Counted from the stretch's first letter, positions 6,705 through 59,799 are shown. The stretch is DNA of 64,000 nt from Desulfobacteraceae bacterium Eth-SRB1 (GCA_004193555.1 RPGP01000029.1:140976-204975), one strand, 5' to 3'. Numbers and translations are program-made. Notes: generated from the sequence alone by a model not told the origin.

Positions 6705-7316
6705 ATGAATTCTTACCACAAAGAGCAGTCAGATGCGCTGGAAATGGTGCAGCGGTATCTTGCGGGCATTTCCGTGCCGGAAAGGAAAAAGCTTGAAGCA
6801 GAGGTGTCGGATTATCTTTTGTTCCGGGATGAGGTTGGCTTTTTTCTTTCCACCCATTTCAGTGAAGTCTGCACTCAAAAATGCTACCAGAGTAAACTGA
6901 GCGCCTGTTGTTCCCGTGAAGGAATTATTACTTTTTTTGGGGAATTTGTTGTCGATGCTCTGGTTTCTCAGGAAAAGGAGATTAAAGTGCTGCTGTCTGT
7001 CTTGAAAAAGCCGAATGAGGGGTTTAAGTGTGTCTATCTTGGAGAAAACGGGTGCATGTGGAAAGTAAAACCGATTGTCTGTGAGATGTTTCTCTGTGAG
7101 CAGGCAAAAAAAGATGTGTTTGGTTTAAATCCTGGCGCCGCGCAGGTATGGGAAGAGCTGAAAAAGAGAAAAAAGCTGTATACATGGCCGGACAGGACAG
7201 TACTGTTTGATACACTTGAGAACTATTTTCTGAATGCAGGATATTTATCACCTCTTATGTATATGCACAATAGTCCCGGACTGTTGCGTGTGAAGCGCAG
7301 GGCGCAGGTTGTATGA
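6705..7316 (+). CDS. Cysteine-rich hypothetical protein (possible Fe-S/Zn binding, loosely YkgJ-like)
   Basis: C-x3-C-x7-CC, then C-x8-C-x9-C-x4-C. It overlaps the helicase gene start by 8 nt. Confidence 0.5.
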   Translation: MNSYHKEQSDALEMVQRYLAGISVPERKKLEAEVSDYLLFRDEVGFFLSTHFSEVCTQKCYQSKLSACCSREGIITFFGEFVVDALVSQEKEIKVLLSVLKKPNEGFKCVYLGENGCMWKVKPIVCEMFLCEQAKKDVFGLNPGAAQVWEELKKRKKLYTWPDRTVLFDTLENYFLNAGYLSPLMYMHNSPGLLRVKRRAQVV

Positions 7317-8683: not shown

Positions 8684-8820
8684 AGGTTGTTAGGCTGTAG
8701 GCTGAAGGCTGTAGGATATCTCTCAAACATCAAAAGTCGAATTTGGGAATAGTGTGCTTGAATGGCTATGCTATATTATTGGGTTTTGTGAGTTTTTTCC
8801 CTAAAAGCCTTCAGCCTGTC
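8684..8820. repeat. Nested palindromic word-repeat element (arms built of aggctgt/aggctga words)
   Basis: Left arm aggttgttaggctgtaggctgaaggctgtagg, right arm cctaaaagccttcagcctgtc. Same family as 62964-63155. Confidence 0.75.
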
Positions 8821-16281: not shown

Positions 16282-16382
16282 CGCAGCAACTTTTTTCTTC
16301 ATATATGTAACCACCTTCCATAATATTTTTATTCCATTAACATCTTATAGTTATAGTGATTCGTCGTGGCATTTATCCTTTG

Positions 16383-16398
16383 TGGCACATATCTTGAT
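16383..16398 (+). promoter_or_regulatory. Sigma54-like -24/-12 element TGGCAC-atatc-TTGAT (non-canonical -12)
   Basis: tggcacatatcttgatat has the same architecture as the elements at 57672 and 58731. Confidence 0.4.
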
Positions 16399-16464
16399 AT
16401 ATAGTTTTATAACTTTGTAACGAAATCTCGAAATATGCCAAATTAAAATGAAAGGGGGTTAGAA

Positions 16465-33229: not shown

Positions 33230-34642
33230 CTATATGTCAAAGTAAAGAAAGAATTCATGTGGATGCGGACGAAGTTTAACAGGATTTACTTCGTGTTCAG
33301 TCTTGTATTCAATCCACGTATCAATAACATCCTGAGTAAAAACATCACCTTTCAGCAGGAAAGCGTTGTCTTCTTTTAAGGCGGTAAGAGCCTCTTCGAG
33401 AGAGCCCGGAGCAGATGGTATATTGGCAAGCTCTTCCGGCGGAAGGCCGTATATGTCTTTGTCTAACGGTTCACCCGGATCAATCTTGTTTTCGATGCCG
33501 TCTAATACAGCCATAAGAATAGCTGAAAAGGCCAGATAACCGTTACAGGACGGGTCAGGAGTTCTGAATTCAATCCGTTTTGCCTTTGGTGATGCAGAGT
33601 ACATCGGGATGCGGATTGCCGCGCTCCGGTTGCGGCTTGAGTAGGCCAGATTTACAGGCGCCTCAAAGCCGGGGACAAGCCGTTTATATGAGTTTGTAGT
33701 TGGATTCGTAAGCGCACAAAGCGCCCTGCAGTGTTTCAATATTCCTCCGATTCCGTAAAGAGCTTCCTGAGAAACCCCGGCATACTTATCACCTGCAAAT
33801 AAGGGCTCTCCATCTTTCCAGATGCTGATATGTGTATGCATTCCGGTGCCGTTATCTTCAAAAAGAGGTTTCGGCATAAATGTGACCGTACGATTATCCC
33901 GTTGGGCCACATTTTTCAGCACATACTTAAACCACATGAGCTGGTCACCCATTTGAACAAGCGGTTTAAAGCGCATATCAATCTCCGCCTGGCCGGCTGT
34001 TGCGACTTCATGATGCTGACATTCAACATCTATCCCCAGTTTTTCAAGTGTAAGAAGCATTTCGGTTCGAAGATCCTGGAACTTATCGGTGGGCGGAACA
34101 GGAAAGTATCCCTGTTTATGTTTGGGCTTATACCCTAAATTAGGAAATTCTTCCCTGCCGCTGTTCCAGATTCCTTCTACAGAATCAATTTCATAGAAGG
34201 ATCCGTTTGTTGAGGAATCAAAACGGACATCATCGAAGATAAAAAATTCAGCTTCAGGACCGATGTATGCTGTGTCGCCAATTCCGCTGCCTTTCAGGTA
34301 TAGTTCAGCCTTTTTAGCAATATAGCGCGGGTCGCGAGAATAAGGTTCACGAGTAAGCGGGTCGGCTATATCTCCGATAAGAACCAGAGTTGGAACCTCA
34401 AAAAATGGATCCATTTTTGCTGTTGAAGGGTCTGGTATCACAAGCATGTCGCTGGCATGAATCGGCTGCCATCCCCTGATGCTTGAACCGTCAAACCCGA
34501 AACCATCCTCAAAGCCGGACTCATTAAGTTCGCATATAGGCACGGTAAAATGCTGCCATACCCCCGGAAAGTCAAGAAATCGTAAATCAACAACCCTGGC
34601 CTCATTTTCTTTTGCCATTTCCAATACCTGTTTTGGTGTCAT
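33230..34642 (-). CDS. glnA: Glutamine synthetase type I, copy 1
   Basis: [33 protein letters not shown] and [11 protein letters not shown] motifs. Start at MTPKQ with RBS caggagat. Confidence 0.93.
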
Positions 34643-34708
34643 AATTTGAATCTCCTGATTATATAAATTGTTAAATATTTGAGTCCACTCGACCACTCAA
34701 CCACTTAA

Positions 34709-35071
<363 letters not shown>

Positions 35072-35792: not shown

Positions 35793-37205
35793 CTATATGT
35801 CAAAGTAAAGAAAGAATTCATGTGGATGCGGACGAAGTTTTACAGGATTTACTTCGTGTTCAGTCTTGTATTCAATCCACGTATCAATAACATCCTGAGT
35901 AAAAACATCACCTTTCAGCAGGAAAGCGTTGTCTTCTTTTAAGGCGGTAAGAGCCTCTTCGAGAGAGCCCGGAGCAGATGGTATATTGGCAAGCTCTTCC
36001 GGCGGAAGGCCGTATATGTCTTTGTCTAACGGTTCACCCGGATCAATCTTGTTTTCGATGCCGTCTAATACAGCCATAAGAATGGCTGAAAAGGCCAGGT
36101 AACCATTGCAGGATGGGTCAGGAGTTCTGAATTCAAGCCGCTTTGTTTTTGGCGATGCCGAATACATCGGGATACGGATTGCGGCGCTCCGGTTGCGGCT
36201 TGAGTAGGCCAGATTTACAGGCGCCTCAAAGCCTGGGACAAGCCGTTTATATGAGTTTGTAGTTGGATTCGTAAGCGCACAAAGCGCCCTGCAGTGTTTC
36301 AATATTCCTCCGATTCCGTAAAGAGCTTCCTGAGAAACCCCGGCATACTTATCACCTGCAAATAAGGGCTCTCCATCTTTCCATATGCTGATATGTGTAT
36401 GCATTCCGGTGCCGTTATCTTCAAAAAGAGGTTTCGGCATAAAGGTAACCGTGCGATTATCCCGTTGGGCCACATTTTTCAGCACATACTTAAACCACAT
36501 GAGCTGGTCACCCATTTGAACAAGCGGTTTAAAGCGCATATCAATCTCCGCCTGGCCGGCCGTTGCGACTTCGTGATGTTGACATTCAACATCTATCCCA
36601 AGTTTTTCAAGGGTAAGAAGCATTTCGGTTCGAAGATCCTGAAACTTGTCTGTCGGCGGAACAGGAAAGTATCCCTGTTTATGTCTGGGCTTATACCCTA
36701 AATTAGGAAATTCTTCCCTGCCGCTGTTCCAGATTCCTTCTACAGAATCAATTTCATAGAAGGATCCGTTTGTTGAGGAATCAAAACGGACATCATCGAA
36801 GATAAAAAATTCAGCTTCAGGACCGATGTATGCTGTGTCGCCAATTCCGCTGCCTTTCAGGTATAGTTCAGCCTTTTTAGCAATATAGCGCGGGTCGCGA
36901 GAATAAGGTTCACGAGTAAGCGGGTCGGCTATATCTCCGATAAGAACCAGAGTTGGAACCTCAAAAAATGGATCCATTTTTGCTGTTGAAGGGTCTGGTA
37001 TCACAAGCATGTCGCTGGCATGAATCGGCTGCCATCCCCTGATGCTTGAACCGTCAAACCCGAAACCGTCTTCAAAGCCGGCCTCATTGAGTTCGCATAT
37101 AGGCACGGTAAAATGCTGCCATACCCCCGGAAAGTCAAGAAATCGTAAATCAACAACCTTAGCCTCATTTTCTTTTGCCATTTCCAGTACCTGTTTTGGT
37201 GTCAT
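35793..37205 (-). CDS. glnA: Glutamine synthetase type I, copy 2
   Basis: Differs from copy 1 at 5 of 470 residues in the ORF-track translations. Confidence 0.93.
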
Positions 37206-37545
37206 GATAATTATTCTCCTTAAAGTATCGTCATAGTTTATGTCTTTCAAAAAGACTTTTTTGACAGGATTAACAGGATATTCACGATTAAAACATCAAA
37301 ACTCATCCTGTCAATCCTCATTAAAATTCTTTACTTTGCTTTTGATTTATGCACAACCAATGATCTTTCAATCAATTCTTTGTATTTCATTTTTACACCT
37401 TACCCAGATAATGATTTTTATGATTTACTGGATAGCTAAAGTAAGGCTTAATCTCGTTTGTTCACTTGAAACCTGTCTGCGTGCTACGCACAGGCAGACA
37501 AAATCTTGTTTATCCTGTGTTATCCTGTCTGATTTTTTTAAAGGG

Positions 37546-37908
<363 letters not shown>

Positions 37909-39301: not shown

Positions 39302-39465
39302 CTTAGGGCTCGCTCAAAAATAACTTTACATTTTAAGCGCCGATACATCCCGTCTGGCTACGTTCCGAAAGCTCAGCAATATCTTGATATTCCTAATCTT
39401 TCGCGCCTTGCCGGCCAGGCGCCTCAACACTTAAAATTGCTAATTTATTTTTGAGCGAACCCTTA
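39302..39465. repeat. About 165-bp MITE-like palindromic element (cttaggg.tcg..caaaaataa termini)
   Basis: Terminal inverted repeats cttagggctcgctcaaaaataa / ttatttttgagcgaaccctta. Internally homologous, in inverted orientation, to 45782-45946. Confidence 0.75.
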
Positions 39466-44159: not shown

Positions 44160-44285
44160 ATTTGATGGCCTTTCGAGCTATAAATACAATTTCGTAAAAA
44201 ATATAGCAAATAATAACGGAAATGTAGTTTTATATCCTGCTTTTTTCACACCAGCGCAGTCATGCCTTAAAAACTTTTAGTCTAA

Positions 44286-44915
44286 AATAGAAACCTTGGC
44301 CCTCAGGGCCAGGTCAGAGTGCAGAGGCTTTGCCATCTGTACGACTCAATGTTACTCAATGGTCAAGTTGTCCCCACAACTTTCAACCAAGGAGTAACAA
44401 ATGAGCCGATTTAGGAAATTAACACAAACTATCTGGCATTGCCAATATGATATTGTCTGGGTTCCTAAATATCGTTTTCGGATATTAAGCGGAGCGGTAG
44501 CCATAGAAGTTGGTAACTGTATCAGGGCTTTTTCTGAACAGAAAGAATGCGAAATTGTAGAGTTGAATGTTCAGATTGATCATGTACACCTGCTTGTAAT
44601 GGTTCCGCCTAAAATATCGATATCTGATTATGTTGGGATGATAAAAGGTAGAACGGCAATTCGAGTGTTTAATAAGTTCAAAAAGTTAAAGACCAAGCCG
44701 TATTGGGGTAACAAGTTTTGGTCAAGAGGTTACTGTGTTGATACAGTAGGTTTGGATTCGGATATGATCCGAAAATACGTAAAATATCAGGAAAAGAAAG
44801 AGAAAAAAACAGACCAACGGAATTTGTTTGATTAACAGAAAAACGGGGGCAAGGTATACTTATCCCCTTTCAGGGGTAACCCAAAGCCTGGCCCTTTGGG
44901 CCAGGCTTCTTTACT
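44286..44915 (+). mobile_element. IS200-type (IS200/IS605 family, tnpA only) insertion
   Basis: Subterminal hairpins ggccctcagggcc (about 44298) and cctggccctttgggccagg (about 44888) flank a Y1 transposase gene. Ends are approximate. Confidence 0.75.
44401..44835 (+). CDS. tnpA: IS200/IS605-family Y1 (HUH) transposase TnpA
   Basis: IVWVPKYRF, DHVHLLV (HUH) and the catalytic Tyr region YVKYQ. Confidence 0.9.
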   Translation: MSRFRKLTQTIWHCQYDIVWVPKYRFRILSGAVAIEVGNCIRAFSEQKECEIVELNVQIDHVHLLVMVPPKISISDYVGMIKGRTAIRVFNKFKKLKTKPYWGNKFWSRGYCVDTVGLDSDMIRKYVKYQEKKEKKTDQRNLFD

Positions 44916-45768
44916 CTTAAATGACCTGTCCTGAAGGGACATGACCTGGGCATCCATGATCGCTTCATCTTGCCCGGACATATCTTTTACGCGTCTGGCA
45001 AGAGCTACGATTTCTTCCTGAGAGCGTGCAAACGCGGCTTCAAGCCTGCTGATTTCAGATACTATATCCTCTGCCTCATCATATTCTATCTGGTCAAAGC
45101 CGATACTTTCTCCGAGAGAGTGCGCATGACCTTCGGCGACACCGGGCGACACAGGCAGGCCTCTAATCAGCCCCCTTTTTCCCTTTTTCGCTGTTTTTTC
45201 AGCGTGTATTTCCACTTCTTCCAGCAGCTTTTCCTCTAAGTCTCGCCTATCCTGCCGCTCCTTTTTCAGGTTTTCAAGAAGACCGGTATAGGCTACCGTT
45301 GCAGAAATTTGGCTGGCTATGGTTGAAAACAGGCCGATGTCTGATTTGGTGACAGCGTCTTCGCGCACGGTTTGAACAACGAGTACGCCGAGCGGATTCC
45401 GGAGATGGACCAGGGGGACACCCAAATATGTGCTGTAGATCTCTTCGCCGCTTTTTTCGAAAAACTTGTATCTGGGATGTGTAGCCGGATTTACAACAAA
45501 CACAGGCTGCATTTTTTTCTAAAACGAGCCCGGTGAGTCCCTCATGGACGCTCATTCGGACTCTGCCTATCGATTCTTTACGCAACCCCACGGTTGCTTG
45601 GAGAATAAGAGAGAGCTTATCCGTATCCAGAAGATATACGGAACATACATCTGTATTAAATTTGTCGGCAACAAGTTCGACAATTTTTTCCAGCGTTCTG
45701 TGCGGCCGGGCAGACTCGGTTATTATCCTCCCGATTTCCTCCAGTATGCTTATCTTATCTCTTTCCAT
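44916..45768 (-). pseudogene. ptsP: ptsP (EI-Ntr) N-terminal remnant: GAF domain plus start of the PEP-utilizer domain, frameshifted and 3'-truncated
   Basis: MERDKISILEEIGRIITES...VHEGLTGLVLEK continues in another frame as MQPVFVVNPATHPRYKFFEKSGEEIYSTYLGVPL. The shift is at an A7/T7 run (45512-45518). The coding sequence ends in the IS right-end hairpin. Confidence 0.75.
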
Positions 45769-45781
45769 TTTTGGCTCACTC

Positions 45782-45946
45782 CTTAGGGTTCGGCAAAAAA
45801 TAAGTTCGCAATTTCAGGTGTTGAGGCACTCGGCTGACAAGGCGCGAAAAAGCATGAATATCAAGCATATTCAGAATTTTCGCAACGCAGTCAGGCGGGA
45901 TGCATCGGCGCCTGAAATGTAAAGTTATTTTTTGTCGAGCCCTTAG
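45782..45946. repeat. Second copy of the about 165-bp MITE-like element
   Basis: cttagggttcggcaaaaaataa ... ttattttttgtcgagcccttag. Confidence 0.75.
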
Positions 45947-46635
45947 TATTGATAAACCGAGCGCATCCCTTGATCGCTCACTATCAGCAAATAAGAAAGT
46001 TTTATTATATATATCATACCAAATTCCTCAAGAAACATACAGCAATTCTAATTATGGCATTTTTTTCTTTTATCCGCCAAAGCCCTCTGGCGGATGTTAT
46101 TCTTCAAAATTAGAATTGCTGAATGGGCAATAGGGACATCAACTATTAAACTTAGCGGGGAGCTGGGACGGCTATTATGATCTTTTTGCGATCAGCAAGG
46201 TTCTTCCGACGGTTCCTAAAATACGTTTGTCCTGCATTTTCTGCACCCCTGTCTGCGTGCACCGCACAGGCAGGTGGTTTCCGCTCAGGCGAGGCGGGCG
46301 GGCAAGCGCAAGATCCATGTGGTAATGCCTTGCAATATAATCCATGTCATGACCTTGGGAGAGCAAATTACCAATTTCACTAAAATTGGTATTATTGGTA
46401 ATTTGAGAGATTCTTTTCAATGGTCAATGGGGGTTGGGCCACGCTATGTTCAGGACTCCCCAACCTTTCGGCCCTTTGCCCGAATACCTGCACGCCAGTG
46501 CCAGGCTTTGGCAGGCGGGCCGTTTTGTTCTTGCCATTTGCCCGTGCTCTTGGCCATAAAAATGGCCAGTTAAAGCTTTATTTAACACAAGATTTTAACG
46601 ATGTTGCTGTGGCCCGACCCCCATTCAGACCCCGC

Positions 46636-48852
46636 CTAAAATCCTATATGTTTTCGCCCGCTATGAAATCTCTTAACATCAGCTTCTTCCTGCAATGCCT
46701 GTATCAATGATTGAGGACTAAGCTCTTCAGGGTGATAAAAGAAATTCTTGTCCCGCACAACCTTGAAATCTCCTGGGGCAAGATCAATAATTTTTTTCAA
46801 TGCTTCTTTGGTAGTTTTATTTAGTGAGGAGTTGGTCAGAGGCTCCAGAAGTCTTTGGTAAAATATAACATTGCCGTTCGGTTTGAGGTAATTAAAACCG
46901 ATCTTGTAATTAAATCTGCGTATCGAAGCGTTATCGAGACCTTTCAGTCTGTTTGTCGTGCAGATAAGGATTCCCCTGTATCTTTCCATCTGGGTCAGGA
47001 ATTCATTTGTAAAACTGATTTCCCAGGATCGCTGTGCCTGATCACGGCTGAAAAGTAGAGAATCAACTTCATCTATTATCAAAACAGCCTCTTCCGACTC
47101 GGCTTCTTCAAACGCTTCTTTGATGTTCTGCTCTGTGCCTCCTACAAAGCTATCAAGAATATCGCTGGTTTTCTTGCAGATTAGTTCTTTGTCCAGATTA
47201 CACGCAATATAACGCGCAAGTTCACTCTTGCCGGTTCCAGGAGGGCCAAAGAAGAGAAGATTCATATTTATCCTGCTTTTTCCATCAGATTGCTGAAGGT
47301 AGTTATCGAACTTTTCAAGCTGCTGCATCATGAACTGTATATTCCCTTGAACATTCAATCCTTTCAGGGAATAGTCCTTTTCTACTGTGTCTTTATCCTT
47401 GTGCTTTTTACCATGATTAAGCAGACTTTCATGTGAATCAAGGGTCAGGGTTACGGCTTTATGAAATCTTTTTTTCGATTTTGCGTTTTTTTCAACAGCT
47501 TTTTTCACTGCTATGTCCATAGCACCGGCGCTGACCTTATAATGTCCGGCAAGATTCGTAATATCAGCATTTGACAAGAAATGTTCGGCCATGTTGTTTT
47601 TCAACACAGAGTCCCAGAGACGGATGCGCTGTTTCCGGTTAAATGGTTTGAAGCAAAGGCTATAGGCAAAACGTCTCAAAACCGATTGCTCAACGCCATC
47701 TATCGAGTTTGTAATCCATATCATTCTTGTTCCCGGTTCTTCAAGTATCTGGTTGAGCCAGCCCTTATCCTGAGTTTCGCCCCTCATAAACCACGAAAAA
47801 TATGTGTTCAGAATATTATCCGCTTCATCGATTAGAATAAGGGAACCTTTCTCTGAATTTGTCATGTTGAGAGATGCTATAATCGCGGCTCGCCTCTGGC
47901 TGGTCTTATTGTCATTTCCCCTCACAATTTCATAGGCCGGTATTCTTAATTTTTCGGCCAGCCCATAGGCATAGCTTGTTTTTCCTGTACCCGGCGAGCC
48001 ATAAAGAAGGATATGCGTTGCTGTTTCCGGCTTGTGTTTTAAAAGCTCCAGGATATGTTCGGTTTGTTCCTGCTCAACAAAATGATACTCAAGCGGCACG
48101 GTATTAGGCGGCATTTTGGAGAAAAAAGTTTTTGTAAATGAGCGGGTTGAGGAATTCTGGATTAAACTTATAAGGTCATCTGTAATGCTCAAATCAAAGC
48201 CGCTTATTTCCAGCAAACCTGTTCTTGCAAGAGTTCCTTCTAATATCTTGTTGAATTCCCTTTGAGTCAAATTCAGGATATTGACCAAATTTTTTCTTCC
48301 CGCAAATTCGTCGCATTTTAAGTGGTAAGTGAAAAAATCGCGGGGAATTTCGTAACCTGCGGTTATAAAGAGGAATAAACTAAACTCAACCTCCTGATCT
48401 GTAAGATCAAACATTTTTTTAATTGCAGTTATGGTTTTTTCTATGTCAGATTTACCACTGTACTGAAACTTTTTGAGATTCTGCTCCAACAGGTGAAAGA
48501 TAAAATGTTTGAATTTGTGGAGGTAACCTGTTTTGACCTTTGCCAGCATGCGGGCAGCAAGATCGGGATACTCTTCGGGATCAAGCCCGCATTCGGAAAG
48601 CTCTTCTTTAAATCTCATTTTCCGGGAATCATCTAACAAATCTAAAATATATTCGTTTACCCTTGTCATTTCACCTCTCAAAGTATAGCAGAGTATCTTC
48701 ATGGTTTCCTCATCCAGGGTAAAATAGCGGTCTAAGTGTTGCCGCAGATATAAAGCGCACTTTTTCAAGGCAAAGCATTCGTTTTTATCAAGGGTTGCTT
48801 TGACATCCGTTAGCATTTGCTTTTTTCTTCGATGTTTTTTAGGCGTGACCAA
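46636..48852 (-). CDS. Protein with two classical AAA+ ATPase modules (738 aa) and an unassigned 270-aa N-terminal region
   Basis: Walker A GSPGTGKT and GPPGTGKS; Walker B LILIDEAD and VLIIDEVD; the second region shows arginine fingers SIRRF. Confidence 0.8.
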   Translation of the reverse strand: MVTPKKHRRKKQMLTDVKATLDKNECFALKKCALYLRQHLDRYFTLDEETMKILCYTLRGEMTRVNEYILDLLDDSRKMRFKEELSECGLDPEEYPDLAARMLAKVKTGYLHKFKHFIFHLLEQNLKKFQYSGKSDIEKTITAIKKMFDLTDQEVEFSLFLFITAGYEIPRDFFTYHLKCDEFAGRKNLVNILNLTQREFNKILEGTLARTGLLEISGFDLSITDDLISLIQNSSTRSFTKTFFSKMPPNTVPLEYHFVEQEQTEHILELLKHKPETATHILLYGSPGTGKTSYAYGLAEKLRIPAYEIVRGNDNKTSQRRAAIIASLNMTNSEKGSLILIDEADNILNTYFSWFMRGETQDKGWLNQILEEPGTRMIWITNSIDGVEQSVLRRFAYSLCFKPFNRKQRIRLWDSVLKNNMAEHFLSNADITNLAGHYKVSAGAMDIAVKKAVEKNAKSKKRFHKAVTLTLDSHESLLNHGKKHKDKDTVEKDYSLKGLNVQGNIQFMMQQLEKFDNYLQQSDGKSRINMNLLFFGPPGTGKSELARYIACNLDKELICKKTSDILDSFVGGTEQNIKEAFEEAESEEAVLIIDEVDSLLFSRDQAQRSWEISFTNEFLTQMERYRGILICTTNRLKGLDNASIRRFNYKIGFNYLKPNGNVIFYQRLLEPLTNSSLNKTTKEALKKIIDLAPGDFKVVRDKNFFYHPEELSPQSLIQALQEEADVKRFHSGRKHIGF

Positions 48853-48858
48853 TCTCCA

Positions 48859-49013
48859 ATAATTCTAATTATAGCCTGTTATTCACCACGAAGCACACGA
48901 AGAACGCGAAGTATAGATTTTACTATTTTCTTATTTCTTCGTGATTTTCGTGTGCTTCGTGGTATTCCATGTCTTTTGATTCGCAAAAATTATTCCATAA
49001 TTAGAATTGCTGG
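48859..49013. repeat. Nested palindromic word-repeat element (cacgaag words; aattctaatt outer arms)
   Basis: caccacgaagcacacgaagaacgcgaag ... cttcgtgattttcgtgtgcttcgtggt. Outer arms ataattctaattatagc / ccataattagaattgctgg. Confidence 0.75.
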
Positions 49014-49102
49014 AACAATCTCCTTTTAACTTGTTTTTTCATATTATAACAGGTTAGTGTTCCATATTGCGGAATGGAAATCCTTTTTTCTGGAGGTGTT
49101 TT

Positions 49103-50110
49103 ATGCCTAAAAAATTAAGCCCTTATATGAGTTATGGTGAAAAACTGATCAGCCTGTTCGCAAGCCTTATGTTTTCAGGAAAAAACCATTCACTCACCAA
49201 TCTTTCTAAAATGCTCCAGTGTTCAAAACAGACAGTATTACGATTGGTAAACGATATACGAAAGTCGTATGGCGTAGATATTGAGGAGAGCATGCAGGGA
49301 AACAAAAGATATTACCGGATAAAAAAGCCGCGACAGATGCTCCCTGCCATAAATCTTACAGAAACCGAGATGAACGTTCTGAGGATGTGCAAAGCCTTTT
49401 CAGAGCATTTATTGGGCAAAGAGCTTTTTAAAGAGGCAACACGGGCGCTTGAGAAAAGTCAGGCGCTTCTCCCGAAAGATAAAGCGCTGTCGTCATATTC
49501 TTTTGCCTCATTTAGCCCCGGAAGCATCGACTACACTCCTTATCAGGAAAGCATTCGCATGCTGTTGGAAGCAATGGAGAAAAAAAGGATATGCAAAATC
49601 AATTACAGAGCCATTATGTCAGAAAAGCTAAAGACCTTTTACATAAAACCGCTCAAGATTTTTTCACATCATGACACAATCTACCTCCACGCGGGTATGG
49701 CGAGAAAACCCGGAAAAACTTACAAAGAACCCGATTTTGATCCCTTATTAGCAATGCACAGAATCAAAAATGTTGAACTGACGGAAAGGATGTTCAAATT
49801 CCCCAAAAAATATGACTTTGAGAAAATCTTTAACCAGGATTTCGGAATCATAAAAGAGGATTCCTTCAAGGCAGAGGTGGAATTCACTGGCTGGTCAGCC
49901 AGATACGTATCCGAGAGAATATGGAGTCCTGATCAGAAGATCATTAAAAAAGCCGATGGAAAAATAAGACTCATCTTCAGCGCTTCATCTGAATACGAGC
50001 TAAAAGGATGGGCGCTTTCTTTTGCCGATGAGGCAAGAGTGGTTAAGCCGAAGTGGCTGGTGGAAAAAGTAAGTCAGACCATCAAGAGGATGAAAAAGGT
50101 GTATTCGTAA
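49103..50110 (+). CDS. WYL-domain (YafY-like) transcriptional regulator
   Basis: N-terminal HTH (LTNLSKMLQCSKQTVLRLVNDI), WYL region (ICKINYRA...KTFYIKPLKIFSHHDTIYLHAG) and a C-terminal WCX-like region. RBS ggaggtg. Confidence 0.8.
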   Translation: MPKKLSPYMSYGEKLISLFASLMFSGKNHSLTNLSKMLQCSKQTVLRLVNDIRKSYGVDIEESMQGNKRYYRIKKPRQMLPAINLTETEMNVLRMCKAFSEHLLGKELFKEATRALEKSQALLPKDKALSSYSFASFSPGSIDYTPYQESIRMLLEAMEKKRICKINYRAIMSEKLKTFYIKPLKIFSHHDTIYLHAGMARKPGKTYKEPDFDPLLAMHRIKNVELTERMFKFPKKYDFEKIFNQDFGIIKEDSFKAEVEFTGWSARYVSERIWSPDQKIIKKADGKIRLIFSASSEYELKGWALSFADEARVVKPKWLVEKVSQTIKRMKKVYS

Positions 50111-50237
50111 TCAATTATAAATCAACCTGCATAACTTTGTATTTGACGTGGCTGCGCAGCTTAATGGATAAAAACCTTGGCATTGTTCAACCAGATAAAC
50201 GGCCGAACCTTCAAGGCCAGGGAGGAGCCGAAAGTAG

Positions 50238-50585
50238 TTACCTGTTTCTTGCAGCTTTTTGCAGGATATCGACAACAGCATTTACGATATTGTTGAATGC
50301 AATTGCATTGAGCCTGCCGACTTCACGTTCTATCAAGGAACTATTGGCGGTGAAAAGCTTGGTTGGTCTTGCATAGCTCAACCTTTGCAAGGTTCCTGTT
50401 TCGAAATCGTCATCAGTAATCTGAATGGCTTCTGGATCAGCATAGGGATTGCTGGTCACTTGGCAAAGGATCCAATCATCTCGACCAACAGAAGCAATAG
50501 CCACTGCAGGACGCAGCTTTGAGGAAGAAAGATCTGAAAAAGGGAATCTGACGAGTACTATTGAACTTTCTGAAGGTGAGACCAT
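50238..50585 (-). CDS. PemK/MazF-family toxin
   Basis: IVLVRFPFSDLSSSKLRPAVAIA...ILCQVTS...ARPTKLFT pattern. Confidence 0.75.
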   Translation of the reverse strand: MVSPSESSIVLVRFPFSDLSSSKLRPAVAIASVGRDDWILCQVTSNPYADPEAIQITDDDFETGTLQRLSYARPTKLFTANSSLIEREVGRLNAIAFNNIVNAVVDILQKAARNR

Positions 50586-50773
50586 GCTTCCTCCTCCTCT
50601 GGACGATTCCAGTCAGAAAGAGCTGCCTCGCTTAGGAGGGCTGTTTCACTGATAAATTTCGATTTTTCATCAAGAATCGTAACTATCGCTCGACAAGGCG
50701 AACTCAGGTGAATAGGTTTCTGAAGGCGAACTTTCCCATTTTTTTCGATAATTGCTTCTACGGCTGTGAGCAT
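50558..50773 (-). CDS. DUF104-like antitoxin
   Basis: VEAIIEKNGKVRLQKPIHL...AIVTIL resembles AF2212/DUF104 antitoxins. Sits upstream of, and overlaps, the MazF-like gene. Confidence 0.55.
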   Translation of the reverse strand: MLTAVEAIIEKNGKVRLQKPIHLSSPCRAIVTILDEKSKFISETALLSEAALSDWNRPEEEEAWSHLQKVQ

Positions 50774-50856
50774 AACTTTTTTCCTCCTTATAATTAATAT
50801 AATTTTACCATTCCAATGAGGCTATTGCAACGAAATTATCCTCATTCGTTTTTATC

Positions 50857-51067
50857 AGCCGAATACGTGGCCGAGAGAATATGAAGTCCTGATCAAAAGA
50901 TCATTAAAAAAGCTGATAGAAAAATAAGACTTATCTTCAGTTCTTCATCCGAGTACGAGCTAAAAGGATGGGCGCTTTCCTTTGCAGATGAGGCAAGAGT
51001 GCTTAAGCCAAAGTGGTTGGTGAAAAAGTAACTCAGACCATTCAAGAAGATGGAAAAGGTGTATTCT
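50857..51067 (+). pseudogene. Duplicated 3' fragment (about 210 nt) of the WYL regulator gene, copy 2
   Basis: Aligns by eye to 49905-50108 with scattered substitutions and indels. Confidence 0.8.
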
Positions 51068-51095
51068 GCAAAGAATTTGAAGAAGGTAAAAATTA

Positions 51096-51866
51096 ATGGC
51101 TGAGAATAAAATTGTTAATGCTGACAAGCTCCAAGGTCTTATTTATACCATTCGGGGTGTTCAAGTAATGTATGATAGTGATTTAGCTGAGTTGTATGGC
51201 GTGGAAATAAAAAGGCTTAATGAACAAGTAAAAAGAAACAGGGAAAGATTCCCTGAAGAGTTTATGTTTCAACTCACTGATGAAGAGTTTGCATCTCTAT
51301 GGTCGCAAAATGCGACCTTAGAAACCGGCATGCGTAAATTCATTACGACAAATGCTCAGATTTTTCACAGGCTTGATGCAGTGGAACAAAAGCAGCTTGA
51401 GCACAAAGCTGAAACAGATAAAAAATTTGACCGGATATTTAACGCCATAGAATCAAAAGAAATCACACCGAAGCAAGGGGTCTTTTTTGACGGACAGATT
51501 TTTGATGCCTATAAATTTGTTTCTGATCTTATCAGAACAGCGAAAAAATCGATCATTATTATTGATAATTATATTGACGATTCAGTTCTGCTGTTGCTTG
51601 CAAAAAGAAAAAAGAGTGTAACGGTTCAAATCTTTACAAAAACAATTTCAAAGCAGATGGCTCTGGATGTGAAGAAATATAATTCTCAATATCTGCCTGT
51701 GGAAATAAAAAAGTTTAAATACGCGCATGACAGGTTCATTATAATAGATGACAAAGAGGTTTTTCATTTTGGGGCATCATTAAAAGATCTTGGAAAAAAA
51801 TGGTTTGCCTTCTCAAAGCTTGAAAAAGACGCCTTCAGGCTTATGGAAAGGCTGAAGGGGAAATGA
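51096..51866 (+). CDS. ORF6N-domain protein
   Basis: IYTIRGVQVMYDSDLAELYGVEIKRLNEQVKRNRERFPEEFMFQLTDEE. Confidence 0.8.
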   Translation: MAENKIVNADKLQGLIYTIRGVQVMYDSDLAELYGVEIKRLNEQVKRNRERFPEEFMFQLTDEEFASLWSQNATLETGMRKFITTNAQIFHRLDAVEQKQLEHKAETDKKFDRIFNAIESKEITPKQGVFFDGQIFDAYKFVSDLIRTAKKSIIIIDNYIDDSVLLLLAKRKKSVTVQIFTKTISKQMALDVKKYNSQYLPVEIKKFKYAHDRFIIIDDKEVFHFGASLKDLGKKWFAFSKLEKDAFRLMERLKGK

Positions 51867-51870
51867 ATAA

Positions 51871-52116
51871 CGGAAAATTGATAATTATAAAGTCAGGATC
51901 AATATCAGCCTGCTTCAAACCGAGGATCTTTTCAAAAGCCAAAATTATCAGTTTGAGCCGCTGAGCTTTGAGATTCTTAAAACAGCTTTCGAAATCGACG
52001 ACACCCCCGAGTTGCACGACCGGCTTATTGCCGCAACTGCCAGATATCTTGACTTGCCAATTATTACCAATGATCCCGTGATCCTGGATTCCAGGTTTGT
52101 TGAAGTTATGAAATGA
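51871..52116 (+). pseudogene. vapC: vapC (PIN) 3' fragment, no start codon
   Basis: Open frame ...FEPLSFEILKTAFEIDDTPELHDRLIAATARYLDLPIITNDPVILDS...*. Confidence 0.65.
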
Positions 52117-52249
52117 TTTTAAAATGAACTGTCAATGGACAATAATTTTGACCCACTACCGGACAATAAAACTGACCCACCCCCTGCACTTAGTTTAAAT
52201 TGATTTTTTGTTTGAGCCGATAGCTTTCTCCACCCATCATAAAAATATG

Positions 52250-53409
52250 TGTTGGACGAAGTACGTCTTTGCATGGATTGAGAATCAAATTAATGGGGCG
52301 AGAGTGCAACATTCCAAGGCTGACGCTAAATCCCAAGAGGGACATCTACAGGGAATTATTAAAGACAATTCTGCATTAGAGGCTTATAAAGAGATGCTGA
52401 AACATGAAGCGTTTTGGAAGAATGGAAATTTTTTTAAAATTAAAGGAATAATCAACATTATAGAACAAAACCAGCTTTGCTTAATGCCGTGGGCCCGGAA
52501 TTTCAGATAAAAATTAGTCACAGGCGGGTAAAAGGGTGGATATCACCATGTTTGGAGTGGGGCTAATGAACTATCCATTTTATCGAGAATAAGTTTGGTA
52601 GTTTGGAAGGTGAAGACCAAACAGAATATTTCAAAAATTAGAAAAGTGGATTAAAAAATCCAGGATCACTTACCGGCTACTATATTTCTTGATTATAATA
52701 AAGGGGAACAAAGCTAAGAGCAAAGATTGGATCAGTCTAAATTACGATTGGTTGCAGAATGCCTTGAAACAACTCATTGACCGTGATGCCTATACCTACT
52801 TTTAGTGTTAGTATGTTTTGAAAGGATACTATGAGTATCTGAGCGATGATCGCTCGCTTCAATCCACCCATAGCGGTCCCAGAAAAGCATTTGGCTACGA
52901 GGTATCAAGGGTATGAGGGAAAACATAAAATGGCAAAACAAACACTGAACGATTGCTATTGGATGAAGACAAAAAATTGAGGATAAAGCTGCCTACTTGC
53001 TATATTGGCAGCCCATCGTTTTTTCTGGGGTTTATTCGACTATACTGGTTGGGAATATATTGGCGAACGGTGGAACGAACGATTGGAGTAAATATTTCCG
53101 AATACGTTGATTCTGGAAGATTGGTTTGTATTCATAAGAAGTCTTGAGTCGTTATTATAAAGATAATGACGAATGGGGCATTCAACTTCCGTGAATAAGA
53201 ATTAGCGGCATCAACTACCCCATATCTTATTTTCAAGCGGGATGAATTTAAGGAGAATATGCCAAAAGAGAAGTTTTGCAAAGGCCAAAATTTAGATGAA
53301 GTTAAAAATTATTGTCACAATCATGAAAGATTGTCAAATGATGACATACATTGTTAAAGGGCTTGCAAAGTATGTGTATAAGATGGTAAAAACATTGGAT
53401 CCTCATTAA
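52250..53409 (+). pseudogene. Decayed, inverted paralogue of the PD-(D/E)XK nuclease gene at 54974-56263
   Basis: Recognisable blocks (EGHLQG, DITMFG..NELSI, EGEDQT.EYFK, SLNYDWLQNALKQLIDRDA, IVKGLAKYVYKMVK) interrupted by stops and frameshifts. Confidence 0.8.
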
Positions 53410-53487
53410 CAACAAGTTTGTCATTTCAACCGGAAACAATTCTTCGTCGCTTGCTCCTCAAGAATAACAACTTGCGCTGTAGTGTTC

Positions 53488-53654
53488 CCATATTACCCTT
53501 GTATAAATTTCTTGCATCCCTGCCTACTGTTTCCTCCATCTCCACCAGCCACTTTGGCTAACCACTCTTGCCTCATCTGCAAGACAGCACCCATCCTTTT
53601 AGCTCGTATTTAGATGAAGCGCTGAAGATAAGTCTTATTTTTCCATCAGCTTTT
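53488..53654 (-). pseudogene. WYL-gene 3' fragment, copy 3 (inverted)
   Basis: Reverse complement matches copy 4 (54717-54890). Confidence 0.75.
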
Positions 53655-54716
53655 AATCCACAGATTTCGCAGATTACAGATTACTATAATCGCGAGTGCG
53701 GGGATCATGTCATAACCTAAATGCAAAATCTGTAATTGAAGTTAATTTCCATATGACGATAGAGTAAAACACTTATTTTTGATACCCGCTGTTTGCGGCG
53801 GGGTAGTTCGACCAGCGGTCATAATGACCCAGTAGCGAACAATAAAACTGAGTACCAAACAAATTGAACGGCATAATGAAGTATTTGTATTATGAATTAA
53901 TATGTTGCTTAAAGTTCCTCATTATTTTCAATAAGGAACAGATGAGATTGGAATGTGATTCATAAGATTAAATTGCTCTATGATGATGGCAGCGAAGTCA
54001 TTCTATCCGTGCCATTTGCTAATGAACTTCGGGTATCGGGGGTACAATCCGAGATACCTGCAATGAAATGAGGGGAAGAGATCACCTGAATATCTTAAAA
54101 CAGGCGGACGAAGAACTCGATAAATATAAAAAGTATATTATCTCCCTGCTTGAAAATATGAGAAAATTATCTGCTGTTAAAATCAAAACTTAAAGCCAAG
54201 GATAGTTTTAACTGTCTCTAACAAGGTCTGTAAGGCGCTACGTAAAACAGAATCAGGCAAACCTTAGCCGTGAAACCCAGAAACATATTATGAAGACCTA
54301 TTATAGATATGGTTCAGGAGTTCAGTGCCAGGTGAATCGGAATCAGGAATATTCCTGTTGGCGATAAATTTATCACTGTCTATTTGTAGTATTTGTTCTC
54401 TTTTCGACAAATATGAGGAACTTTAAGCAACATATTAATTATAATACAAATACTTATTATGCTGCCTGTAAAAGTTAATTGTTTGAGGTGGGTCAGTTTT
54501 ATTGTCCGCTACTGGGTCATTATAAATGACCGCTAACAATGAACTACCCCGCCGCAAACAGCGGGGGTATCAAAATAAGTGTTTTAATATTTCCTATCGC
54601 CGCAAGTAGCGGGAAATTAACCACTACAGATTTTGCATTTAGGGGGTTATGACATATGATCCCCTCGCACTTCAAGTGATTATAGTAATCTGTGTAATCT
54701 GCGAAATCTGTGGATT

Positions 54717-54890
54717 AAAAAAGCTGATGGAAAAATAAGACTTATCTTCAGCGCTTCATCTAAATACGAGCTAAAAGGATGGGTGCTGTCTTTTGCAGAT
54801 GAGGCAAGAGTGGTTAAGCCAAAGTGGCTGGTGGAGGAGATGGAGGAAACAGTAGGCAGGATGCAAGAAATTTATACAAGGGTAATATAA
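54717..54890 (+). pseudogene. WYL-gene 3' fragment, copy 4, with an alternative C-terminus
   Basis: KKADGKIRLIFSASSKYELKGWVLSFADEARVVKPKWLVEEMEETVGRMQEIYTRVI*. The first roughly 125 nt are close to 49935-50060. Confidence 0.75.
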
Positions 54891-54973
54891 CACTACAGCG
54901 CAAGTTGTTATTCTGAGGAGCAAAGCGACGAAGAATCTGTTTTCCGGGTTGAAATGACAAACTTGCTGTAGGG

Positions 54974-56263
54974 CTATTTGTTATCGAGGGATCCAATGTT
55001 TTTTACCATCTTTTTATACATACTTGCAAGCTCCTTAACAATGGCGTCATCATTTGCGACAATCTTTTTCTTTATGATTGTGACACAATTCTTTAACTTC
55101 ATCTTACCTCCCATGGCCTTTGCAAAACTTTCAAGTTTTTTGGCATATTCTTCCTTAAATTCATCCCGCTTGAAAATAAGATATAAGTAGTTGATGCCGC
55201 TGGGTTCTTGGTCTACGGAAAGTTGAATGCCCCATTCGTCATTATCTTTTTTATAATAACGACTCCAAGACTTCTTATGAATACAAAACCACCTTTTTCC
55301 AGAATCGTATTCGAAATATTTATTTCCAATCGTTCGTTCCAATCGTTCGCCAATATATTCCCAACCAGTATAGTCGAATAAACCCCAGAAAAACGATGGG
55401 TGCTGCCAATATAGCAAGTATAGCTTATCCTCAATTTTTTTTGGTTCATCCAATAGCAATCGTTCAGTAGTTTGTTTTGCTAATTCATTTTTATGTTTTC
55501 TCATAAATTTCAAGAGATTTTGATGCTTACGAGCAATTGCAGCCAAATGCTTTTCTGGACCGCTATGGTAAGGATTTGAAGAGCGATCATCGCTCAGATA
55601 CTCATAGTATCCTTTCAAAACATACTCAACACTAGCAGGTATAGCATCACGGTCAATGAGTTGCTTCAAGGCATTCTGCAACCAATCGTAATTTAGACTG
55701 ATCCAATCTTTGCTCTTAGCTTTGTTCTCATTATAATCAAGAAATATATATAGCCGGTAAGGATCCCTGGATTTTAATAATTCTTCTAATTTTTTGAAAT
55801 ATTCTAAGGTTTGGTCTTCACCTTCCAAACTACCAAACTTATTCTCGATAAAAATGGATAGTTCATTAGCCCCATCAAACATGGTGATATCCACCCTTTT
55901 ACCCGCCTGTGACTCACTTATCTGAAATTCCGGCCATACCACGGCATTAGCAAAGCTGGTTTGTTCTATATCAAAGACATTCCACTCTTTAAAAAATGCA
56001 TTCTTCTCTAAAACGCTTATGTTTTCAGCATCTTTATAAGTTTCTAATGCAGTGCGAATTAAGGCCTTAATAAAATAATCTCCCTGTAGATGTCCCTCTC
56101 TGGGATTTAGCAGCCATGCAAGTATTCTGGAATGTTGCACTTCGCCCGGTTCTATTAACGTAAATGGATTTCTTTCTTTTCCCCAATCCATGCAAAGACG
56201 TACTTCTTCGTCTAACAGAAAGTTTTCTATTTCCTTTGTGCTAATTTTCTTAGCTTTTTTCAT
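54974..56263 (-). CDS. PD-(D/E)XK-superfamily nuclease-like protein (429 aa)
   Basis: HSRILAWLLNPREGH...RVDITMF...LSIFIENKFGS (D...E-x-K core). Confidence 0.65.
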   Translation of the reverse strand: MKKAKKISTKEIENFLLDEEVRLCMDWGKERNPFTLIEPGEVQHSRILAWLLNPREGHLQGDYFIKALIRTALETYKDAENISVLEKNAFFKEWNVFDIEQTSFANAVVWPEFQISESQAGKRVDITMFDGANELSIFIENKFGSLEGEDQTLEYFKKLEELLKSRDPYRLYIFLDYNENKAKSKDWISLNYDWLQNALKQLIDRDAIPASVEYVLKGYYEYLSDDRSSNPYHSGPEKHLAAIARKHQNLLKFMRKHKNELAKQTTERLLLDEPKKIEDKLYLLYWQHPSFFWGLFDYTGWEYIGERLERTIGNKYFEYDSGKRWFCIHKKSWSRYYKKDNDEWGIQLSVDQEPSGINYLYLIFKRDEFKEEYAKKLESFAKAMGGKMKLKNCVTIIKKKIVANDDAIVKELASMYKKMVKNIGSLDNK

Positions 56264-56280
56264 AAACTGCCCCCATTAAT

Positions 56281-56346
56281 CTAACAAATAACCGCTAATC
56301 GTTTATTTTTTCTTTTGGTTACACAAGTGTCTAACAGGTATTTCAT
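56281..56346 (-). pseudogene. vapC: vapC 5' relic (MKYLLDTCV then out of context), ATGA-overlapping the phd stop
   Basis: The canonical PIN N-terminus MKYLLDT is followed by 12 unrelated codons and a stop. Confidence 0.55.
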
Positions 56347-56606
56347 AATTCTATATCTCGCGGCAAATCCTTATTTCTTTTTATGTCTAAATTAATTTTT
56401 GAAAGAGGAAAATTTTGAAAGAATTTCAACAGGTTGGTTTTCGGTTTTATTAATTTTTTGTATTCATCAATTGATAGAACAACAACAGCATCTTTGCCAT
56501 GTCTGGTTACTACTTGAGGACCATTATGTTGAGCTTTATCAACAAGGTTGCTGAATTTATTTTTTGCATTCTGAAGTTGCCATGAATTTTCTATCATTTT
56601 CATCAC
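56343..56606 (-). CDS. Phd/YefM-family antitoxin
   Basis: WQLQNAKNKFSNLVDKAQHNGPQVVTRHGKDAVVVLSIDEYKKL. Confidence 0.8.
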   Translation of the reverse strand: MMKMIENSWQLQNAKNKFSNLVDKAQHNGPQVVTRHGKDAVVVLSIDEYKKLIKPKTNLLKFFQNFPLSKINLDIKRNKDLPRDIEL

Positions 56607-56881
56607 CCCGCAGGATTATATTTTGTATGGTTCTGGCTAACCTGTCTAAAAATAGTCTTTTGGGGAGTTAAATGTCAATGATATTGTTTTTAAAAGGGCT
56701 GCCTATAAGAGCCTTTTGGATTTTTTTGGCATAAAACCGTGCCCGAAAAAAAGCTTTTTCATTCCGCAATATGGAATATCCTTATGGTATGATGCAATAA
56801 AGCAGATTAAAGAAGAAAGCAATAATGCTAAATGTGCGTCGGACAATCTCCGGAAAATTAAATCACATGGAGGATATCACC

Positions 56882-57424
56882 ATGAAAAAAGAAACAACAA
56901 GACGTAAATTTTTATGCGGCGCAGGAGCAATGTGTTTGCTAGGCAGTTATGGCTGGTGTGAAGAAAATCCGCCGGCTGTCAAGAAGAAATCTATAATATG
57001 TTCAAAAGAATTATCCATGCATGGAGCAAGTGATGCGGAAGTAGAAAAGCTATTTAAAGACACTGAGCCATTGCTTGCCAATATTGGATTAACCACAGTT
57101 GTAAAAATTATACACATTAACAGTTATGAATTTCCCGGTTCCCAATTTCAGGTCTCGGTTGATTGTAAGGCGTTGGATAATTTTGGGGCAGTACAAAACA
57201 TCTGCATGGAATTTTTCCCAAGGGCAGTCGAACAAAGAGACAAAATAGTCAAAGACCTGAAGGCCGATTCCATATTTCTGATAAAAGGAGAGTATGGCAT
57301 GCTTAAAGATATTTCTGTCACGCTTTATGAACCGGACTACAGCAGGACTAAGCCAAAATCTTTAGAGAATAAAATGAGAAAACTGTTTCAGATATTTGAA
57401 GATTCAATGAAAATCAAAATTTAA
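56882..57424 (+). CDS. Hypothetical exported protein with a Tat-like signal (TRRKFLCGAGA)
   Basis: Twin-arginine motif plus an h-region; ATG at 56882 is preceded by ggagga. Confidence 0.5.
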   Translation: MKKETTRRKFLCGAGAMCLLGSYGWCEENPPAVKKKSIICSKELSMHGASDAEVEKLFKDTEPLLANIGLTTVVKIIHINSYEFPGSQFQVSVDCKALDNFGAVQNICMEFFPRAVEQRDKIVKDLKADSIFLIKGEYGMLKDISVTLYEPDYSRTKPKSLENKMRKLFQIFEDSMKIKI

Positions 57425-57671
57425 CATTATGTTACAAAAAAGGAGATGTAATTATGTCCCATGGGGACGCCCATGCAATTATGCGTTTCCCTAAATTAAC
57501 CTATGGCAATTCTCAGGAAATTGGATCAGGTAAGCTATTGACCCGTGAGCAAATAATAACGGAAATGTAGTTTTATATCCTGCTTTTCTCACACCAGCGC
57601 AGTCCTGCTTTAAGAACTTTTAGTAATAATATCTTCTGATTGTAATGATTTTCCACAACATCTACCATTTT

Positions 57672-57687
57672 TGGCACGCCTCTTGAT
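57672..57687 (+). promoter_or_regulatory. Sigma54-like element TGGCAC-gcctc-TTGAT
   Basis: tggcacgcctcttgatatat, 100 nt upstream of the ATG at 57786. Confidence 0.4.
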
Positions 57688-57785
57688 ATATAGCTTTACA
57701 ACAAGATCGTCAAAATTGAGAAGCCTTGCCGGATAGTACCGGAATACTTCCAATAATAACCACATCATTTATGGAGTTCAGCAAT

Positions 57786-59631: not shown

Positions 59632-59799
59632 TTGTGTTGTTAATCCACAGATTACGCAGATTACACGGATTACTCTGAGGGCAGAGATCGTCAAGTGGTT
59701 AAGTGGCTGTTATTATTCAAGCAAGCAGACTGTTGAAAGCTCAAAAGAAAAAGGACTCGAGCAATCGACTATTTAACGATATTTGAAGGGAGAAAAAAG

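Follow-up and report, generated by a model that had tools for sequence, protein, structure and literature searches.

Repeated 3' ends of a WYL regulator gene in a hotspot of defence and toxin-antitoxin cassettes of Desulfobacteraceae bacterium Eth-SRB1

Defence hotspots with conserved flanking genes have been described for P2/P4 (PMC9122126), the Pseudomonas core (PMC10250203) and E. coli (PMC10121019). In these hotspots the flanks are conserved, the load of defence and toxin-antitoxin (TA) genes varies between strains, and recombination within the flanks is given as the cause of exchange. Here we describe a locus of comparable plan in Desulfobacteraceae bacterium Eth-SRB1, located in a stretch of 64,000 nt (RPGP01000029.1:140976-204975) that we call the window and whose positions serve as coordinates throughout. 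Its relatives have the same flanks with different defence and TA cargo, and its sequence indicates that the locus is a hotspot of defence/TA cassettes anchored on a conserved module of a AAA+ ATPase and a WYL-type regulator. In contrast to the described hotspots, flank sequence is reiterated inside the island, as 3' stubs of the WYL gene and one 5' stub, which provide internal recombination points. Literature searches gave no description of regulator-gene stubs that are reiterated within an island and evolve in concert; the reiteration recurs in several independent assemblies. The assembly of defence islands is still mostly inferred from patterns of presence and absence. At this locus each addition seems to leave a dated scar, the stub, so that the sequence of events, the points of recombination and the part played by gene conversion can be read and compared between strains.

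Other described systems share part of this anatomy. Integrative and conjugative elements (ICE), integrative and mobilizable elements (IME) and cis-mobilizable elements (CIME) reportedly accrete in tandem at the 3' end of a gene. As in that process, fragments of the target's 3' end lie between pieces of cargo and the target gene is intact, and direct 3'-end repeats flank the elements both in the window (copies c1, c2 and c4) and in a related locus, L018. However, no cognate integrase was found in or beside the elements among the long ORFs of the window or the listed genes of the related loci, a single attachment (att) core is not evident, boundaries vary, one junction sits in microhomology, and the additions are single small cassettes. 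Integron arrays resemble the locus in their small, promoter-poor cassettes, many of them TA or defence genes, in their fixed platform and in an order that is shuffled among relatives. An assignment to integrons was rejected: there is no integrase (IntI), the repeats between cassettes are 120-330 nt of WYL coding sequence rather than attC structures, Rfam gave no relevant match, and orientation is mixed. In naturally transformable bacteria, homology-facilitated illegitimate recombination is said to add foreign DNA through one homologous anchor and a join at microhomology. The process that we propose is of this kind, although here it is read from junction anatomy alone. Finally, WYL regulators of the BrxR/CapW family accompany defence loci (Picton et al. 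2022, PMC9122601, cited in PMC11551731). The likeness lies in a protein with a WYL domain followed by a C-terminal WCX domain, which is placed beside diverse defence genes and whose own 5' region contains a palindromic sequence; the differences are the divergent two-domain AAA+ partner and the convergent cargo headed by a copied regulator 5' untranslated region (UTR), with putative regulation.

We think it rather probable that the cassettes accrete and shuffle by homologous and illegitimate recombination on WYL-derived homology, with no dedicated integrase. That no recombinase was seen, that boundaries vary, that one junction shows microhomology and that stubs are homogenised accords better with general recombination than with a fixed att core.

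The intact WYL gene ends in copy c1 and is followed by three partial copies of its 3' end, the stubs c2, c3 and c4 (Table 1). A first-pass annotation of the sequence had placed four such copies here, and both self-BLAST (used for repeats in the window) and tblastn (used for the protein-level extent of the copies) recover them. By self-BLAST c1 matches c2 at 89.2% identity over 213 nt (49895-50106 and 50855-51066), c4 at 94.3% over 122 nt (49943-50064 and 54714-54835), after which the tail differs, and the inverted c3 at 91.5% over 117 nt (49948-50064 and 53654-53541). The WYL residues covered are 265-335 in c2, 281-335 in c4 and 283-329 in c3; in the list of open reading frames (ORFs) none spans c4, and c2 and c3 are frameshifted. 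The core common to all four is also present in nearly all copies of the related loci, where one stub of L019 starts inside it, and a 48-nt core pattern had three matches in the window against 0.00 expected (100 shuffles). The 3' ends are of two kinds, tail A and tail B, which part abruptly after ...AAGTGGCTGGTG; that c4 carries a different C-terminal tail, as had been noticed, is correct (...VEEMEETVGRMQEIYTRVI and a stop codon). A reading of c3 and c4 as separate integrations does not hold. Both fall in one inverted high-scoring pair of the self-BLAST (52241-53943 against 56226-54391, 81.5% over 1891 columns) and are 100% complementary over 74 nt, so the window has three independent WYL 3' ends, not four. 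The stubs c3 and c4 are products of one inverted duplication, c3 being the by-product of that later event beside debris of IS21-type insertion sequences (IS).

Comparison across metagenomes recovered alternative cargo in five other loci and a permuted order in L018, which bears out the earlier idea of a cassette-swapping hotspot. The related loci are on short metagenome contigs of 3-10 kb, and the close relatives are metagenome-assembled genomes (MAGs) of Thermodesulfobacteriota/Desulfobacteraceae. At 85-93% nucleotide identity, these have the WYL gene on the left, a 5' stub of it, usually with a 199-aa gene, on the right, and different cargo in between; at least six different cargo sets stand beside the WYL gene, the right-hand landmark of 5' stub and 199-aa gene, or both. 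The simplest form, L004, consists of the WYL gene, convergent cargo (genes of 455 aa, PLD-like, and of 89 aa) and the 5' stub. The cargo of L003 comprises five small or unknown genes (59-, 416-, 101- and 207-aa among them) and a DUF2779 gene; that of L019 a PD-(D/E)XK gene, an HNH gene and a PIN TA pair; that of L023 a PDC-M15A-like gene, HNH and DUF2779; and that of L024 two unrelated genes of 278 and 203 aa and DUF2779. Across the loci the families include PADLOC PDC-S05, PDC-S26, PDC-M15A and DrmC-like PLD, plus HipA and MazF. L018, found by a metagenome scan with the core pattern, has four direct WYL 3' copies in 7 kb. In the orientation of its WYL gene it contains, in turn, the intact gene with tail A and its trailer, an ORF6N-PLD gene with a small TA-like pair, a codon-227 stub with tail B, a MazF TA pair, a codon-265 stub with tail B, HipBA, the non-coding sequence that we call X, and a codon-281 stub with tail A. 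The MazF and ORF6N cassettes thus stand in the opposite order to that of the window, where the WYL gene is followed by the MazF TA pair, a stub and ORF6N-PLD.

Stubs of this type are more widespread in public data. A protein search with the stub peptide gave ORFs of 43-118 aa that encode WCX alone, in 19 clusters and with further 5' boundaries. One of these ORFs joins WYL codons 1-7 to codons 293-335, and some stubs are intact ORFs elsewhere, such as the 74-aa P0122. At 10001-10348 of L021 there is a lone WCX-only ORF of 115 aa, with 61% identity to the stub peptide. It belongs to another island, which contains ERCC4, NOV_C and UvrD genes and where the other called genes gave no WYL-family (WCX) match; WYL 3' remnants therefore reach beyond the close clade.

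The junctions of the stubs have been re-assorted with their tails. The junction of the MazF cassette with codon 265 is base-identical in c2 and in fragment 3 of L018, and leads to tail A and ORF6N in the window and to tail B and HipBA in L018. The junction of X with codon 281 is base-identical in c3/c4 of the window and in L017, L018 (fragment 4), L019, L023 and L024; it is followed by tail B in the window, L019 and L024 and by tail A in L017, L018 and L023. Both junctions are thus found with both tails, in all four possible pairings. On their other side the tails are linked to cargo: tail A to its trailer and ORF6N in L018, an arrangement that the window shares apart from a 219-nt deletion; tail B-TRVI to PD-(D/E)XK in the window and L019; and tail A to a 59-aa ORF in L003 and L023. 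Given that identical 5' junctions occur with either tail, the crossovers must lie within the 122-nt core. The earlier annotation had proposed that a common crossover core be sought among the copies, and in this sense one exists.

Identity in the core peaks within a locus, independently of tail and junction. In L018 the full gene and fragment 3 are 96.7% identical and fragments 2 and 3 95.0%, while fragment 3 and its junction-mate c2 reach only 89.2%; in the window c1 and c4 share 94.2% of the core, and in MAG063, L001 and L002 are 92.5% identical. Locus-specific substitutions extend right to the junction. Together, the likeness of copies within a locus and the reach of these substitutions indicate that copies are homogenised within loci by gene conversion between the repeats.

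A mechanism can be suggested from these observations. The basic unit would be that of L004, in which a AAA gene, a divergent promoter and the WYL gene face cargo in a convergent operon, at whose head the WYL 5' UTR and start codon stand inverted. Cargo would enter on DNA that also carries WYL sequence, and one crossover would take place within the conserved WYL (or AAA) homology. The other end would join illegitimately, or a circle of stub plus cargo would enter through a single crossover; in either case the WYL gene would stay intact and the displaced 3' end would become a stub before the older cargo, as we propose for c2 and c4. Stubs could then recombine and gene-convert through the core, both among themselves and with the intact gene, by which cassettes and tails would be permuted, deleted and re-paired. 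For instance, excision between two stubs of the L018 type and re-entry into the intact gene would give the order of the window and exactly the make-up of c2. We infer both the dependence on RecA-type recombination and this route of DNA entry. A more doubtful extension is that the 3' core and the inverted 5' stub form a homology-based capture platform, an analogue of the integron that works without a recombinase (or with another one) and brings newcomers under the WYL sensor-regulator. Populations could exchange and stack defence and TA cassettes if such a platform exists.

Several observations weigh against recombination without a dedicated enzyme. Copies with tail B, of which there are at least three unrelated continuations, diverge 0-2 nt after TATAC(A/G)AGG, and c2 meets ORF6N at the corresponding place. 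We attribute the coincidence of the tail-B junctions to a ratchet in which replacements from the right move the junction only towards the last WYL codon that is needed, but they could mark a precise site. The MazF cassette follows tail A in the window and tail B plus about 190 nt in L018, a difference that calls for one additional event or more. The contrasts in identity are drawn from 120 nt, in which one base amounts to 0.8%, and MAG063 may mix strains. Given the shortness of the related contigs, a recombinase encoded elsewhere might act in trans.

The reading closest to that of the first-pass annotation, which compared the locus with islands at tRNA genes, is site-specific integration. Small elements that lack an integrase, comparable to cis-mobilizable elements or integron cassettes, would be inserted by a recombinase encoded elsewhere at an att site in the 3' end of the WYL gene, and every element would supply its own surrogate 3' end. 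Direct repeats do bracket each cassette, the element-side junctions (MazF with codon 265, X with codon 281) recur in different contexts, the tails switch abruptly, and several unrelated cargo sequences begin at nearly the same base. We nevertheless regard this as unlikely. Pfam scans of long ORFs, which covered the whole 64 kb window, found no integrase, resolvase or reverse transcriptase, in agreement with what had been noted about the integrase. An IS200 Y1 transposase (44401-44835) and remnants of IS21 are all that emerged in the way of mobility genes, and no recombinase is listed among the genes and ORFs of the related loci either. The cassettes, of 0.7-2.5 kb, have no mobility genes and are mixed in orientation. 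The stubs have at least four 5' boundaries (codons 227, 265, 281 and 296, with more among the fragment ORFs), and the 3' junctions of tail A fall at four positions over about 100 nt. The junction with X shows microhomology, and homogenisation spans whole stubs.

Local decay would need nothing mobile. If the stubs were merely debris of duplications, inversions and deletions with no role in exchange, one would expect what is in fact seen of c3 and c4, of the frameshifts in c2 and c3, of the internal deletion in ORF6N, of the VapC and PD-(D/E)XK pseudogenes and of the IS21 and IS200 debris. The permuted order of the same cassettes in L018, the different cargo between the same flanks in five other loci and the pairing of identical junctions with different tails are not expected from local decay alone and largely contradict it, and we hold it to be quite improbable as a full account. 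It is less likely again that the stubs are functional, whether as silent donors (pilS-like), as invertible segments (shufflon-like) that alter the WYL tail, or as small WCX-only modulators. Two tail types exchanged between copies, gene conversion, intact stub ORFs in other loci and the inversion of c3 relative to the gene would suit such a role. But two of the three stubs in the window are frameshifted and no ORF is listed over the third, conversion homogenises the copies instead of diversifying them, no invertase is present, and there are just two tails, each linked to its own cargo. These features make a function for the stubs very improbable indeed.

Two further classes were tried and set aside. 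A diversity-generating retroelement does not fit, as the window has no reverse transcriptase and differences between copies involve all four bases; nor does a shufflon, as c3 has indels and is part of a decayed 1.7-kb duplication.

Table 1. Features of the cassette locus, in window positions
Feature	Position	Strand	Remarks
Two-domain AAA+ ATPase gene	46636..48852	-	738 aa; Pfam AAA in two stretches; divergent from WYL gene
WYL 5' UTR block	49058..49113	+	Palindrome-like GTTCCATATTGCGGAA, ribosome-binding site, first four codons; alignment of six loci
WYL-WCX regulator gene, intact	49103..50110	+	335 aa from ATG; tail A, ...VEKVSQTIKRMKKVYS and stop
c1, 3' end of intact WYL gene	49895-50110	+	Self-BLAST
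Common core	49943..50064	+	122 nt; all four copies, 88-100% identity
Tail-A trailer	50111..50165	+	55 nt; accompanies tail A in L003, L017, L018 and L023
MazF cassette	50180..50854	-	MazF/PemK toxin 50238-50585 (PemK 2.5e-5); 71-aa presumed antitoxin 50558-50773
Stub c2	50855..51066	+	WYL codons 265-335, tail A; frameshift, stop codon lost
ORF6N-PLD cassette	51067..52125	+	Gene 51096-51866 (PADLOC PDC-S05), then remnants of a small TA-like pair
IS21-family remnant	52130..52260	-	C-terminal istB codons and terminal repeats; outer edge of left arm
Left arm of inverted duplication	52241..53943		PD-(D/E)XK pseudogene (+), c3, X sequence, IS21-type end
Decayed PD-(D/E)XK copy	52243-53397	+	tblastn
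Stub c3	53497..53654	-	Inverted copy of c4; several indels
Spacer at centre of inverted duplication	53944..54390		447 nt, unique; self-BLAST
Right arm of inverted duplication	54391..56226		IS21-type end (to about 54535), X, c4, PD-(D/E)XK gene
X sequence, non-coding	54536..54713	+	GC hairpins and 3x TAATCTGYG array; 5' junction of codon-281 stubs
Stub c4	54714..54890	+	WYL codons 281 to end, tail B; arrangement orthologous to L019
PD-(D/E)XK gene, intact	54974..56263	-	PDDEXK_4; PADLOC PDC-S26; convergent on c4
VapC/PIN-like N-terminal remnant	56281-56346	-	22 codons, after Phd; sequence read
Phd antitoxin	56343-56606	-	Pfam PhdYeFM
Inverted WYL 5' stub	56720..56792	-	Operator-like block and ATGCCAAAAAA; right end of array
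199-aa gene	56825..57456	+	No family match; gene 56825-57424, block ends at 57456 in L003, L004 and L019

The module on which the array is anchored is itself of interest. The ATPase matches PADLOC IetA (2e-40), but NCBIfam IteA with 123 bits against a cut-off of 510; given this score and the absence of an adjoining protease, we rejected the IetAS defence system. The WYL protein matches Pfam WYL (1.6e-5) and WCX (1.3e-13) and PADLOC WYL (2e-24). An N-terminal helix-turn-helix domain was not detected in it, PF08279 being recorded for two homologues only. There are 920 WYL homologues, the closest 86-93% identical, and exact look-ups of the window protein (with two start codons) and of P0121 found neither on record. 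The divergent AAA-WYL pair is conserved in L001, L003, L010-L015 and L027. Protein identity is about 50-65% in several distant contigs (L010-L015 and L027) and on a Desulfosarcina plasmid, where the neighbouring genes vary on either side. The genes after the ATPase differ (DUF2779, PLD or dCMP-type deaminase); the window has no long ORF there (45950-46636). The AAA-WYL pair may be a defence module that is as yet undescribed but widespread, and whose nuclease or deaminase partners can be exchanged. In L004-L009, compared with 49046-50072 of the window, the WYL protein is 87% identical and the N-terminus of the neighbouring ATPase just 40-44%. Such an island of similarity, limited to the WYL gene, suggests that the regulator has been exchanged or converted between divergent systems.

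At the right end of the array the start of the WYL gene is repeated. Positions 49060-49115, which comprise the 5' UTR with GTTCCATATTGCGGAA, the ribosome-binding site region and ATGCCTAAAAAA, recur inverted as 57 nt at 56776-56720 (82% by self-BLAST). This inverted stub heads the minus-strand Phd, VapC' and PD-(D/E)XK genes and stands just before the plus-strand 199-aa gene; it is 91-94% conserved in L004, L019, L023 and L024 and lies within the match to L003. It is probably the right-hand handle of the locus. In the relatives the palindrome-like sequence reads GTTCC-N7-GGAAC, and a block of this type is conserved both at the WYL gene and at the head of the cargo. We consider the 5' UTR block a putative operator. 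If it is the WYL operator, the cargo would be coupled to the regulator through a copied operator, which would show new modules coming under an existing sensor-regulator.

The arms of the inverted duplication are 1.7-1.8 kb long, the left being a decayed mirror image of the right. The IS21 remnant at its outer edge has 80% nucleotide identity to the annotated istB of ISCfr8. ISCfr8 resides on IncHI2 plasmids of Enterobacterales, and the match is surprisingly close for a Thermodesulfobacteriota-like genome. An IS21-derived miniature inverted-repeat element at the centre of the palindrome was considered and dropped, as a single inverted duplication with one IS21-type end fits equally well. The last 35 nt of X are the three-unit array and end in GGATTAA, in the region of the X-WYL junction (54686-54718). 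A free array of the same kind (3x TAATCYGYG) lies at 59637-59674 on the minus strand, just downstream of nifH, as a dispersed element. Since it also ends in GGATTAA, the join of X and WYL sits in 5-7 nt of microhomology with WYL ...ATCATTAAAAAAGC. The free array also explains better why the end of X resembles WYL codons 265-270, a resemblance by which the two junction types might have been taken as one. A CRISPR-like reading of the X hairpins was rejected, there being just two, about 46 nt apart, and a single one in L017 and L018, as was a tie to the IS200 Y1 transposase, since the IS200 end hairpins differ in sequence.

The cargo labels of the first-pass annotation stand for MazF, ORF6N, Phd, PD-(D/E)XK and its decayed copy; the exception is DUF104, since no Pfam family reached E <= 0.1 for the 71-aa protein paired with MazF. 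The MazF cassette with its junction to the next stub is 91.5% identical in L018 (50198-51025 = L018rc 3215-4041). The ORF6N cassettes of the window and L018 are 97-99% identical, but the window gene has an in-frame deletion of 126 nt (42 codons) near 51330, at the end of the ORF6N domain, and may be inactive as a result. The start of the VapC-like remnant, MKYLLDTCV, is presumably PIN.

The window is chromosomal: glnA, glnB, amtB, glnD and a NifA-like activator precede a 13.3-kb island (44282-57547) that holds the locus, and a GATase gene, nifH and further nif-type genes follow it. Defence labels were taken from PADLOC and NCBIfam. A phage origin was rejected, as a viral-contig scan was empty and a phage collection gave only weak ORF6N matches, and so was a plasmid origin, a plasmid collection giving a 66% AAA-WYL match (Desulfosarcina BuS5 plasmid) and an IS21 fragment. 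No tRNA or tmRNA genes were found in the window, Rfam gave no family at gathering score there and one sub-threshold sRNA match within 49000-57700, and a scan for sigma-70 promoters and terminators gave no excess over shuffled expectation.

Both edges of the island carry a 77-nt direct repeat (44205-44281 and 57548-57624, 95% identical), between the NifA-like sigma-54 activator on one side and the GATase/nifH genes on the other. It resembles the target duplication or att pair that an island would show after insertion into the nif regulon, though no integrase is present. An IS200-type element (44282-44915), with hairpins near 44293-44312 and 44869-44894, abuts the left repeat and truncates a frameshifted ptsP-like gene (44832-45768; GAF and PEP-utilisers_N). 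Upstream of this pseudogene lies the second copy of a 162-nt inverted repeat (39302-39463 and 45785-45946, 78% complementary), which is itself palindromic (45776-45952). A 76-nt repeat (16338-16413 and 57627-57702, 71% identical) upstream of two different genes holds TGGCAC-N5-TTGA, which is sigma-54 promoter-like.

Elsewhere in the window, glnA-glnB (glutamine synthetase and P-II) is duplicated in tandem (33230-35047 and 35793-37884), the first 300 nt being 99% identical between the glnA copies and 89% between the P-II copies. A second cluster of defence type (56-8679) contains RhuM, a type I restriction HsdR with an inserted DUF559 domain (1074-4778), a nucleotidyltransferase pair (substrate-binding protein and Pol-beta-type nucleotidyltransferase, 5053-5821) and a ResIII/DEAD helicase (7309-8679), and is followed by a polyketide synthase of 2178 aa (8820-15356).

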